A stretch of DNA of 63,504 nucleotides, filler included, from Reclinomonas americana ATCC 50394 (Eukaryota), in the NCBI GenBank assembly GCA_048213135.1. It is 31 parts of 31 records of this genome, joined end to end, with 100 filler letters (N's around TTAATTAATTAA, not from the genome) between each part and the next. Parts side by side here need not be neighbours in the genome. Positions count along the whole stretch, not along the records: positions 1 to 1,980 come from AFZH01025086.1; positions 2,081 to 4,061 come from AFZH01025088.1; positions 4,162 to 6,138 come from AFZH01025090.1; positions 6,239 to 8,214 come from AFZH01025091.1; positions 8,315 to 10,290 come from AFZH01025092.1; positions 10,391 to 12,364 come from AFZH01025093.1; positions 12,465 to 14,436 come from AFZH01025094.1; positions 14,537 to 16,504 come from AFZH01025095.1; 23 more parts are not named here. One strand, given 5' to 3'. Made by a program: the position numbers and the translations under genes. The first letter of the stretch is position 1. Every line of letters starts with the position of its first letter. Under the pieces are notes generated by a model. The model had not been told where the DNA came from and did not search any database. It saw only the letters and a list, made by a program, of their open reading frames with translations. This document shows positions 442 through 63,469 of this stretch, one piece after another.

Positions 442-1766
442 ATGAACTCGATCGAGCACGCGCAACACCGAGGCCGCGGCCGTGGCGGCGCTGGCCAACG
501 CGGCACTGGCCCCGAGCAACTGCTCGGCAAGTTCCGCGTTGCACAAAGGTAAGCACATACGCGCACACACACAAGAGAGCGAAAGAGAAAGAAAAAAGTG
601 CTGCCTTTGCGCGCGCGAAATCGTGCACGCGCCATCGCCTTCTCTCTTGGTGCCCCCTCCTCGACACTTGCGCTCTCACTCATTGCCTTTCGCATACACA
701 GCCCAAGTGGTATGCCAGCCATGGGCAGCAGGTTGCGTGGCGATTCCCTTGCACGCGCTCACAAACAGCAACAACACATTGACTGAGTGTGATCGCCTCT
801 CTTTCTCTCACTCTCAGCGATCCCACTCGTCGTCACATGTTGCCGCACGGATCCAGCACCTTCCGTCGCAAGATCAGCCACGGTGAGAGAGAGCACACAC
901 ACACACACACACACGCACACAGCACAGACAGTGTTTCTTTTTTGTCTATCATGCGCTCAAATCCGTTACAAATTTCTGTGACACTCTGTGGCGCATCAGT
1001 GGCCTTCACTGTGACACTGTGTTTTTGTGTCACTTTCTCCCTCTCTGAGTGTGCACGTGTGCATGTGTCTCTGTCTATGTGTGCGCGTTTCTCTGCGTGA
1101 TTGTTGCTTCGCGCCTGTTTTTTTGTCTGTTGAGTGTGTTTCGCGCCATCACGTGGAGATGGCCACACACTCTCTCTCCCTCCAACACACTCATGCACGC
1201 GCATGCTGTTGTTGTTGCCCACTGATTGCTCTTTTCGTGCAGGTCATGAGGTTGCATATCGACCGGCCGACTTGAAGAACCCGGTGGAGAAGTCGAAGCT
1301 GTGGGAACTGATGGCCAAGTACCTGTCGAAGGGTGCGTGTGTTACACAACGCCACTTTTACATACACACCCATCATTCCCGCTCTCTTTTTCTGCGAATG
1401 ATCATCATGCACGATTCTCTGCCGTTTTCGACTTTTTCTCATTTCGCGCGCGCGCTCATTTGGCAGACGTCAAGGACATTCAGCAGTACATTTGCAACCA
1501 CGTGGAGTACACGCTGGCGCGCACTCGCTACAACCTCGATTCGTACTCGGCGTACCAGGCCACTGCCTTGTCGGTCCGCGATCGCCTGATTGAGAGCTGG
1601 AATGACACTCAGCAGGTCAGCAGTTGGGCACGCTGAGCTGGGGTGCGCACGTTGAGCAGCGAGTTAACTGACGTGTTGATCCGTGGCAGTTCTTCACCGA
1701 CCGCGACGTGAAGCGCGTGTACTACATGTCGCTGGAGTTCCTGATGGGCCGCAGCTTGCAGAATGC
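442..1766 (+). CDS. Glycogen/alpha-glucan phosphorylase, 5' part, multi-exon, truncated by contig end
   Basis: Spliced reading gives [86 protein letters not shown], the conserved phosphorylase N-terminus. GT..AG introns keep the frame. The ATG at 442 is inferred. Confidence 0.93.
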
Positions 1767-1980
1767 GTTGCGTTTGGTTGGCGAAAGGGCTCTGTCTCTC
1801 CTTCTCTTCCTTCTCTCTTCTGTGTTGCTTGCGCGCGCACTCGTCACTGCTTGAACTTGTTGCTTGTGTTTCTCGTTCTGCCTTCCCCCCTTCCTGTCTC
1901 CTTCCAGTCTGTCATGCTCTCTCTCTCTCTCTCTCTCTTCTCTCTTTCTCTCTTTCTCTCTCTTCTCTCTCTTCTCTCTC

Positions 1981-2080
1981 NNNNNNNNNNNNNNNNNNNN
2001 NNNNNNNNNNNNNNNNNNNNNNNNTTAATTAATTAANNNNNNNNNNNNNNNNNNNNNNNNNNNNNNNNNNNNNNNNNNNN
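1981..2080. other. Artificial contig spacer (N-run, TTAATTAATTAA, N-run); first of 30 such spacers
   Basis: The same 100-nt block recurs about every 2.05 kb. TTAATTAATTAA gives stops in all six frames. Contigs are roughly ordered by decreasing length. Confidence 0.99.
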
Positions 2081-2213
2081 GCCGCTCAATCAGCTGCGTG
2101 GATATGATGGAGATGTGGGAAACCGAACACAACATTGGAGGAAGGAGCGTGAAGCCACGCGTGGCCGCCGACAAAGCCGCTCACGGTCACATTGGCGAGT
2201 GAAAGCTGTGCGA

Positions 2214-61442: not shown

Positions 61443-61638
61443 CTGCGCAGAGACGGTCAGGCCACTGACACACAAATGCACACACAGANNNNNNNNNNNN
61501 NNNNNNNNNNNNNNNNNNNNNNNNNNNNNNNNTTAATTAATTAANNNNNNNNNNNNNNNNNNNNNNNNNNNNNNNNNNNNNNNNNNNNGTGTGTTGGTCA
61601 CCACCTGTGTTTACTAACACGTCCATCTTTCTTCACAG

Positions 61639-62304
61639 AGCATCTGGCGTCGTGCTCCGAGCGACAGGAGATGATCAAGGACAAGGAGTACTGCCAGGAC
61701 TTTGGCTGCGGCATTTGTGGCATTGCGGTGTTGGAGTCGAAGCGTCGCTTCGGCTTGCTTCGTTGCGTCCGACTTTATTCGCCGTCGGAAAATCGAAAAC
61801 AACCACGCCCGCTGACCCCCTGTCCTCACAGAGTGCTGCGATCACTCGTTCTGCCTGGACTGCATTCGTGCACATCGCGCCGCCGGTGCCCGTTCCGGCG
61901 TCAAGGACGGCGATCGCATGTGCCCGACGTGCGAGTCCATTTCGTACTACGTGATTCCGAGTCTGTACGCACCACGCAACGCTGCTCGCAAGGAGCAGAT
62001 TGTGGCCGACTACAAGGTACGACAAGCAGCACAATTGTGTGCTCTCTCTACGCACCACCACCTCATCCCTTTTGCCCCCTCCGCACAGGCGCGCCTCTCC
62101 AAGATCCCCTGCAAGCACTTCAACTGGGGCCGCGGTGTGTGCCCCTTCAACCAGAACTGCTTCTACCTGCACTCGCGCTCGGAGCGCGGTGCCGACTTGC
62201 GCGAGTCACCCTCGTCATCGGCATGCGCAACGCCGTCCAGCGGCTCCGCCTCGTCGACACCCTCGCCGGGCAAGCGTCCGCGGCCGTCGCAGCTCACAAT
62301 GTGA
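61639..62304 (+). CDS. MKRN: Makorin-family RING plus C3H zinc-finger E3 ligase, 3' part
   Basis: CGIC..RRFGLL.C.HSFCLDCIR..CPTC...YYVIPS, then CKHFNWGRGVCPFNQNCFYLH. Confidence 0.9.
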
Positions 62305-62869
62305 AGTATTTTTGTGTGTGTGTTGTGTATATACTATGTGTGCGTGGCGTGGCGTGGTGTGGTATGGTTAACAACAACTGTTTGCGAAGAGAAAAAGAAA
62401 AAGCCCCATCGGAAGGAGTGAGGAAAAAGGAAAATGTTTGTTGTGTAAGCGCGTGTTTTTTGTTTATGTTGTGCGTCCGTGTACAGAGACGGAGTGAGAG
62501 AGTGTGGTTTGGAAAAAGAAACATATAAAGTGAATTGGTACTTTTGGTTGCAGCGGGCGGCCATGACATGTAGTACAGTTCGTAACTGAAAGGTGGTGAT
62601 GGCCATGGCAACATGCCCGACCCCGCGGCCGCCCACAGCCTTTGCCTTCATCCGACACCGGTCCCACTTCCCAAGCCGGCGCCACCGGATCAGAATGCAG
62701 AGACAATGAAGAGCAGCAAGAGCAGCAAGAGCAGCCGACTTCGATATCACGTTGCACAGTACATCATGACGGACGGACACACGCGAGTCGCTCCGCTGAA
62801 TCACTCACACAAAAAAGGCGGAGAAAAGCGCGCGTTTCGTGTGCCTCTCTCTATCTCTCCTCTGCTACA

Positions 62870-63469
62870 ATGGCATCTGCAGGCCGCGCGCCTGGAGGCG
62901 AGTTTGTTGGTGTGGCACCGGGAGTGGGCGGTGGACGCGCAGGTGGCGTCAGTCAGCTCGGCTCCACGTTGCGTCCACCCCACCACACTGACACACTCTG
63001 ACCCTCACTCTCACTCTCACTCTTACTCACACTCTGCGCGTGCAGGGTGTACGCTGTGAATGACTTGCGCATTGTGAAGAATGCTGGAGGTGCGTGCGCC
63101 TCTCACACTCTCTCACTCTCTCTCTTGTCACACTGGCACTCACTGCCTGCGCAGGCAAGCTTGATTTCCTCATGGTCATGGAGAACGTGGAGAAGAAGAG
63201 TCGCGTCACACGCACACATCATGATGTTTTTATTGAGAGAGAAAGTTCTGCTCACCACACAAACAGAGTTCTCCACCGAGAGAGCCAAAGAGGGCTTCAA
63301 GGCGAACCAAGACGCGCTGATTGACAAGCTGTGCCGCGCGGGCTTCCACGTGGAGGTCGGCACGTCGGTGGATCGTGACGAAGTGTTTGTGGTGTTTGGT
63401 TTGGACGATGGTCCACTGGAGAACTTTGCCGAGCGCATCAAGTACGACATGGAGCTGATCCCGCAGCAG
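62870..63469 (+). CDS. Anoctamin/TMEM16-like N-terminus (tentative), four exons
   Basis: Spliced reading LDFLMV...LIDKLCRAGFHVEV..SVDRDEVFV...LENFAERIKYDMEL resembles the anoctamin cytosolic N-terminal domain. Confidence 0.5.

Follow-up and report, generated by a model that had tools for sequence, protein, structure and literature searches.

The DNA analysed here, which we call the window, is a stretch of 63,504 bases from Reclinomonas americana ATCC 50394 (assembly GCA_048213135.1), and our subject is a second class of 5' splice sites (donors) within it, typified by GTTGCGT, in which the G that ordinary donors carry at intron position +5 falls at +6. The window is not a single locus: 31 separate contigs, running from 1980 down to 1916 bases with the longest first, are joined by spacers of the form N44-TTAATTAATTAA-N44 (1981-2080, 4062-4161 and so on), and features that span a spacer are not readable as continuous. 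Its GC content is 52-60% and its gene content is that of an intron-rich eukaryote. The genes include glycogen phosphorylase, dihydroxyacetone kinase (DAK), myo-inositol-1-phosphate synthase (MIPS), an outer-arm axonemal dynein heavy chain, beta-adaptin, PP2C, a HECT ligase, a vWA protein, and a CAP-Gly protein. Because the exons are short, a Pfam search on 150 raw open reading frames (ORFs) gave few matches.

An earlier note on this DNA, made from the sequence alone, had listed 29 donors in which one extra base after GT places the G at +6. All 29 sites carry the motif on the strand given for them: 23 are GTTGCG, two GTTGAGT, two GTTTCGT, one GTTCCGT, and one GTCGCGT. The hexamer GTTGCG occurs 76 times in the window compared to an expectation of 56.3 +/- 6.6, and none of 100 shuffled sequences reached 76. 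The heptamer GTTGCGT occurs 36 times where a second-order Markov model expects 10.9; simple repeats aside, it is the most enriched GT-heptamer in the window. It is also oriented with the genes: in gene spans called without a donor model, 24 copies are sense and 4 are antisense (binomial p = 2e-4).

We parsed the contigs into exons and introns with a generalised hidden Markov model that combines codon log-odds, an intron composition model, and an acceptor model, with a donor model as an option. The codon log-odds came from the unsupervised codon-usage cluster that holds 4 of the 5 Pfam-positive ORFs; the model was trained solely on its own predictions, its parser requires AG at the 3' end, and reversed sequence served as the decoy. 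Without a donor model, it predicts 131 introns (decoy, 43) and GTTGCGT is the commonest donor 7-mer, with 10 examples, followed by GTGCGTG (6), GTGAGTG (4), GTTTCGT (3), and GTTGCGC (3). With the donor model and a harder intron penalty, there are again 131 introns (decoy, 27), including 17 that start with GTTGCGT, 8 with GTGCGTG, and 6 with GTGAGTG. The 29 listed sites are predicted as donors in 22 cases with the donor model and in 17 without it; those at 19405, 57405, 62968, 15584, 32308, 59626, and 60338 drop out even when the donor model is used.

Two pairs of contigs, 7 with 26 and 25 with 29, are about 98% identical. Between contigs 7 and 26, we counted 0 gapped columns in predicted exons compared to 45 elsewhere, so that all of the indels are non-exonic; between contigs 25 and 29, the single multi-base gap run seen in a predicted intron is 4 bases long. 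Since the two pairs are allelic, 12834/51801 and 13351/52309 each stand for one intron that enters the counts on both alleles, and dropping the two duplicate contigs leaves 122 introns in each parse. In the donor-blind set, G is at +5 in 54 of these, at +6 without a G at +5 in 29, and at neither position in 39; in the donor-model set the corresponding numbers are 56, 33, and 33. The last group is inflated by model errors, two of which homology corrected to ordinary donors: a call at 17195 moved to GTGAGC at 17185, and calls at 43921/44071 gave way to GTGAGT at 43926. The MIPS intron that begins there (43926-44265, plus strand) is a single 340-base intron that the model had split around an invented 35-base exon.

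To place donors by homology, we took all GT/GC...AG pairs up to 60 bases from the exon ends that left both frames open and scored the spliced peptide against homologs. This fixed 20 donors: 13 are ordinary with G at +5, one belongs to a GC-AG intron, and 6 have G at +6. They come from DAK (7, using homolog P0001), dynein (6, using 10 homologs), HECT (3, using P0243), MIPS (2, using 10 homologs), beta-adaptin (1), and glycogen phosphorylase (1, fixed by residues 42-89 and then 91-116 of 1ygp_A). At all five of the +6 G junctions that were scanned, the GT that starts the motif belongs to the best GT/GC-AG pair, and the sixth is fixed by structure numbering (Table 1). Homology puts the donors at 34492, 34584, 35973, and 35487 exactly where the earlier note had put them, including the DAK junctions GDRF/HFGLA and GCLL/IVKNY (a slash marks the cut). 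The two classes alternate within genes: DAK has 5 ordinary and 2 new donors, and dynein has 3 ordinary donors, 1 GC-AG donor, and 2 new ones. Six junctions were left unfixed by homology, among them those at 17341, 16994, and 16626 (HECT), one near 33468 (DAK), and the first in MIPS. GC donors here retain the full ordinary consensus.

Table 1 Donors and related features of the window. Junction scores are those of the best pair against the runner-up; both parses means with and without the donor model.
Feature	Position	Strand	Evidence or remark
GTTGCGT donor, DAK (GDRF/HFGLA)	34486..34492	-	Best pair against P0001, 117 vs 107, no indel
GTTCCGT donor, DAK (GCLL/IVKNY)	34578..34584	-	Best pair, 157 vs 132
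GTTGCGC donor, outer-arm dynein heavy chain	35967..35973	-	Best pair against 10 homologs, 61.6 vs 55.3; homolog spacing kept
GTTTCGT donor, dynein	35481..35487	-	Best pair, 149.7 vs 142.4
GTTGCGT donor, HECT ligase (not among the 29 listed sites)	17663..17669	+	Best pair against P0243, 65 vs 55; EGRA/KPVF spacing matches
GTGGCGT donor, beta-adaptin	61166..61172	-	Exons are 6cri_B residues 403-491 and 493-524, one residue between
Ordinary-class example, g/GTGAGTG donor, dynein	36126..36132	-	Best pair, 91 vs 77
GC-AG donor aag/GCAAGT, dynein	36903..36908 (intron 36844-36908, ...CAG)	-	Best pair, 226 vs 199
GTTTCGT donor, rhodanese-type gene	12834..12840	+	Predicted in both parses
GTTGCGT donor, vWA-domain gene (VIQ-F-S)	32573..32579	-	Predicted in both parses
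Further vWA-gene sites	32405, 31845, 32308	-	32405 and 31845 predicted in both parses, 32308 in neither
GTTGCGT donor, RING (makorin-like) gene	61762..61768	+	Predicted in both parses; next exon has a RING match
GTTGAGT donors	6974..6980; 7163-7169	-	Both predicted in both parses
Listed GTTGCGT site	1767..1773	+	Solved glycogen phosphorylase alignments extend 1-5 residues beyond
Near-identical contig pairs	12465-14436 with 51440-53374; 49405-51339 with 57540-59466		Alleles or very recent duplicates

Enrichment, strand bias, the donor-blind parse, and homology all point the same way, and we regard it as very likely that GTTGCGT-type sites are a real class of GT-AG donors. The suggestion that the class is a major one also stands: it accounts for 6 of the 20 donors fixed by homology and for 29 (donor-blind) or 33 (donor-model) of the 122 predicted donors, so that the +6 G class heads roughly 24-37% of introns.

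The anatomy of the two classes was counted on the donor-model set, with which the donor-blind set agrees. In the ordinary class, G is found at -1 in 37 of 56 donors and at +3 in 34, +4 is A in 24, C in 17, and T in 12, and T at +6 (39/56) is followed by G at +7 (28/56). The new class has T at +3 (28/33), G at +4 (25/33), C at +5 (27/33; the remaining 6 have A), and T at +7 (26/33), and G precedes the cut in only 4 of 33 cases. Laid over each other without a shift, the two patterns agree nowhere. When the new class is slid by one base, it matches the ordinary class everywhere except that T at +2 stands opposite the ordinary G at +1; the match thus requires the one-base offset that the earlier note had described. 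The new motif is also the more sharply defined, with an information content of 1.09, 0.89, 1.25, and 1.01 bits at +3, +4, +5, and +7, compared to 0.39, 0.21, and 0.65 bits at +3, +4, and +6 of ordinary donors. Its C at +5 is more strongly preferred than C at the corresponding ordinary position, +4 (27/33 vs 17/56, p = 3e-6).

The loss of the exonic G is the second mark of the class. Ordinary donors have G at -1 in 37 of 56 cases and new donors in 4 of 33 (Fisher p = 6e-7); the donor-blind counts are 33/54 and 3/29, and among donors fixed by homology they are 13/14 and 0/5. The same low proportion is seen independently of the parser: 4 of 33 GTTGCGT occurrences in the de-duplicated window are preceded by G, compared to 27% of GT dinucleotides in exons. 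Donors of the form GTTTGT, which combine T at +3 with G at +5, have G at -1 in 5 of 6 cases. Because these keep the exonic G, the rule at -1 follows the position of the intronic G and not the T. The lost preference at -1 also argues for a shifted register rather than a bulge, since a bulge with +1 and +2 canonically paired would keep it.

These patterns suggest how the two classes could be related. Both show a constant frame, G-N4-GT, which would be what the donor's reader recognises. At ordinary sites, the cut would fall after the first G of this frame; at new sites, it would fall before that G, with the GT of the intron one base earlier. The pairing that recognises a new donor would then be offset from the cut by one base, and the intronic G at +1 would take the place of the exonic G at -1. 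We consider a frame shifted by one base to be probable.

Beyond the donor, the introns of the two classes are alike. The predicted introns of the new class end in AG in 33 of 33 cases, with CAG in 28 of 33 (43 of 56 in ordinary introns). CT[CG]AC is present in 18 of 33 new and 25 of 56 ordinary introns, with a median distance of 23 bases to the 3' end. Median lengths are 72 bases (new) and 74 bases (ordinary; p = 0.84), intron composition is alike, and the phases show no clear difference (8/13/12 in the new class vs 24/20/12 in the ordinary). From these features, the steps downstream of donor recognition look shared by both classes. On the reading that we favour, the two kinds of GT-AG intron start are served by one and the same machinery. 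A family of introner-like elements was rejected as an account of the introns: an all-against-all blastn comparison of the 122 introns, each trimmed of its first 8 bases, returned 22 short matches of 15-31 bases, and among the first 20 of these, one links two members of the class (15 bases) and the longest ones join neighbouring introns of contig 27.

What might read the heptamer? We folded each donor, from -3 to +9, against the U1 5' end as given by Tan et al. (2016, PMC4856993). Ordinary donors pair in the canonical register with a mean energy of -6.59 kcal/mol; C4 of U1 pairs with +5 in 45 of 56 and C9 pairs with -1 in 37 of 56. The mean for the new class is -1.65 kcal/mol, compared to -1.69 for sites with neither G and -2.41 for shuffled copies of the new donors themselves. 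When all 16,384 heptamers are ranked as U1 5' ends, the canonical end comes 138th for ordinary donors and 12,541st for the new class. In the minimum-energy duplexes of new donors, U1 C9 pairs with +1, as in the shifted register, in 3 of 33, so shifted-register pairing to canonical U1 is not stable, although the organism's own U1 may differ; U1 C8 pairs with +1, as in a bulged register, in 5 of 33. The base preferred at +5 is C, in place of the A that canonical U1 could pair with. The earlier note had offered routine bulge accommodation or variant small nuclear RNAs (snRNAs) as explanations. Accommodation by canonical U1 fares poorly, given that pairing is no better than in controls, the G at -1 is lost, and C dominates +5; variant snRNAs are the better bet. 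No snRNA gene was found in the window at Rfam gathering scores, and none of the 6 weak matches at E up to 1 is an snRNA.

That so strongly conserved a heptamer matches canonical U1 in none of the registers speaks for another reader or a retuned one. The reader that we favour would be a U1 with a retuned 5' end, in which ...ACGCA(A/C)C... replaces ...ACUUAC..., so that G faces +5 and C faces +4; it could be the organism's sole U1 or a second, variant U1. We regard an altered or variant U1, with U1 as the reader and its 5' end changed, as a possibility that falls a little short of an even chance. The fuller scenario is one that we propose tentatively and count as somewhat unlikely in all its parts: a second U1-type snRNA, or a retuned U1 (...ACGCAAC...), would read n/GUUGCGU at about a third of introns and hand them to the ordinary U2-type pathway, as a lineage-specific system. 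By way of illustration only, a hypothetical U1 end with UU changed to GC binds both classes (-8.25 and -6.05), and one with GCA is best for the new class (-8.38); GC-richer U1 ends bind everything better, including shuffled sites (about -4.7).

The most serious alternative to a retuned U1 is that canonical U1 itself reads the class through weak shifted or bulged pairing, with specificity supplied by U1-C, LUC7-type factors, and the later check by U6, U5, and Prp8. Shifted and bulged registers are proven in human cells, as Tan et al. (2016, PMC4856993) report, the shifted alignment and lost G at -1 are what a shifted register would give, and GC-rich genomes tolerate C at the ordinary +4 (17/56 here). 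But the predicted pairing of the class equals that of control sites, and the validated human shifted oligonucleotide described in the same text reaches -6.5 kcal/mol, compared to -1.65 here (PMC4856993). Nor would weak U1 pairing helped by general proteins be expected to conserve a heptamer with C at +5, and we judge this explanation unlikely. Less likely again is a reader other than U1, be it a sequence-specific protein, another small RNA, or U6 and U5 alone where U1 matters little. The misfit to canonical U1 and the high information content across seven positions would suit such a reader, and by inspection the heptamer does not fit the ACAGAGA box either; the window, however, names no candidate factor, and the G-N4-GT frame common to ordinary donors is most simply that of one U1-type reader.

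It is also conceivable that the class is an artefact of placement: the true cut could lie at the GC three bases in (GTT/GCGT), at a GT five bases in, at nearby ordinary donors, or one base 3' at both ends of the intron (G/TT...AGN/). Some sites lend themselves to this. Site 1767 carries the motif on the plus strand as listed, but its standing as a donor is doubtful, for the phosphorylase alignments run past it (Table 1); no acceptor is found on its contig, ordinary-looking GTs stand 6 and 12 bases further on, and it is probably exon. At 15584, the model favours the GT five bases in, and at 35973 the shift at both ends would give Ser, found in 51 of 88 dynein homologs, where GT-AG gives Asn, found in 4 of 88. 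Against this, a cut further in would leave GTT conserved at exon ends in all three phases (8/13/12), for which there is no coding rationale, and the enrichment, the strand bias, and the donor-blind parse hold wherever exactly the cut is placed. The GC-donor reading, GTT/GCGT, is the commonest runner-up in the junction scan, yet it adds one residue and scores lower at 34492 (117 vs 107) and 35973 (61.6 vs 55.3). With both ends shifted, introns would start with TT and end in A, C, or T after AG in 31 of 33 cases, and the aromatic residues at the vWA VIQ-F-S and rhodanese-type junctions would become Cys. We take these aromatic residues to be conserved in their families. Overall, misplacement is very improbable as an account of the class.

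Two other candidates were set aside. A homopolymer sequencing error does not explain the extra T, which is present in both alleles, with exon frames kept. U12-type introns have the donor RTATCCTT and the branch motif TCCTTAAC. Here, by contrast, introns of the new class start with GTTGCGT, 1 of 33 has TTAAC within its last 45 bases, and the branch is the ordinary CTCAC/CTGAC in both classes.

Several observations weigh against the shifted frame and the retuned U1, or limit how firmly either can be held. The beta-adaptin donor at 61172 (aag/GTGGCGT), with G at +6, +3, and -1, fits a bulge and not a shift. Immediately after the acceptor, the exon starts with G in 2 of 33 new introns compared to 17 of 56 ordinary ones, so that both flanking exon bases of new-class introns avoid G, and this depletion after the acceptor is not explained by our model. 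A U1 ending in ACGCAC predicts C over A at the ordinary +4, where A is the commoner (24 vs 17), and to our knowledge the U1 5' end hardly varies among eukaryotes, so that an altered one is unlikely a priori. The energy model takes no account of pseudouridine, the cap, or proteins and treats the U1 of this organism as canonical. Every junction was placed from sequence, and only 20 donors are fixed by homology; several of these won by small margins (10, 6.3, and 7.3 score units), and for three of the genes the placement uses one homolog or one PDB alignment each. The gene model is self-trained on 60 kb, has a false-discovery rate of about 21-33% by the decoys, and makes errors that homology exposed.

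Donors of several known kinds resemble the new class. Roca et al. reportedly described 5' splice sites of a bulge +2/+3 register in 2012. Like the sites here, these have one extra base between the GT and the G-T that pairs with C4-A3 of U1, and U is commonest at +3 according to a figure legend (PMC4856993). They differ in keeping the G+1:C8 and -1G:C9 pairs; here the G at -1 is lost, and only 61172 resembles them. In C. elegans unc-73(e936), the cryptic site is said to lie one base upstream. The likeness of this SNRP-27/PRP-8 system is that it decides which of two adjacent cut sites is used as U1 gives way to U6/Prp8, and Zahler et al. (2018, PMC6140464) find G at +6 in 14 of 26 mutant-promoted donors, linked to noncanonical U1 registers and tied to donor 'slipperiness'. 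Those sites, as that text presents them, are mutant-induced or alternative and concern few genes, unlike the class here, which is constitutive and genome-wide (PMC6140464).

The human shifted-register sites are similar as well (Roca and Krainer 2009, as cited in PMC4856993): the GT lies one base 5' of the U1 frame, with G at +6 and T at +7, and G at -1 is not needed, the test oligonucleotide of Tan et al. having A there. They differ in number, since all validated noncanonical U1 registers in human together make up 1.5% of 5' splice sites by the figures given there (GC-AG, 0.9%; U12-type, 0.36%), compared to about 24-37% here (Tan et al. 2016, PMC4856993). They also pair well with canonical U1 (PMC4856993), which the sites here do not, and here the heptamer is near-fixed with C at +5. 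U12-type introns, too, are a second class that is mixed with ordinary introns in genes, with a long conserved 5' motif and a different small RNA. Their donor motif is unrelated, and in known genomes their share of introns is far below 1% (for human, PMC4856993 gives 0.36%). What is new here is the combination of ordinary donors that have G at -1 with a +6 G class that lacks it.

Pairing between the U1 5' end and a GTRAGT-type donor is among the most conserved in eukaryotes, and a shifted register has been known only from rare exceptions. A human study of variant snRNAs is said to have found U1 copies of changed sequence, by which variant spliceosomes could be defined, and we know of no variant U1 that serves a third of an organism's introns. 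Our literature searches brought up no paper that presents the heptamer as the consensus of a donor and no lineage in which a comparable class is reported, though donor logos usually sit in figures and supplements that such searches do not reach; among papers that join the heptamer with splice site and intron, none concerns a donor consensus, judging by title and abstract, and elsewhere the letters belong to primers and the like. If a quarter to a third of introns do depend on a fixed heptamer in a shifted register, donor recognition can be re-set genome-wide, all the more so because the heptamer is unfit for canonical U1. The genome would then let one study, in a natural setting, what decides the cut where the frame read by U1 and the GT are at odds. 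Gene finders trained on one donor matrix alone will mis-call genomes of this kind. The finding would go beyond a variant of the known shifted-register sites if a matching U1 exists.

Some individual sites and neighbouring features deserve mention. The allele of the 12834 donor on contig 26 (51801-51807) reads GTTGCGT, a G/T difference at +4. The exon 3' of the vWA-gene donors has a weak Pfam VWA match. Site 59626 has mild support in a Pfam beta-appendage match that stops two residues short of it (profile position 59 of 112). Contig 6 (10391-12364) is unlike the others, with long intronless ORFs, a DUF3800 match, a weak match to a TetR C-terminal domain, and a tRNA-Met (CAT) gene at 11936-12011. 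Bacterial contamination, or a region with few introns, may account for this contig. Microsatellites of (CT)n, (GA)n, and (CA)n are common in introns and at contig ends (for example at 1915-1980, 7130-7165, 27000-27060, and 37303-37335) and probably account for the assembly breaks there.

The nearest relatives of the genes are at most about 64% identical for a dynein exon and at most 78% for MIPS over three exons, and a metagenome scan found relatives at 36-37% only. The HECT exon at 17752-18210 (plus strand) is 89% identical to a public protein of 154 residues from an assembled contig of 5.9 kb, which indicates that a close relative has already been sequenced and can be used for comparison.

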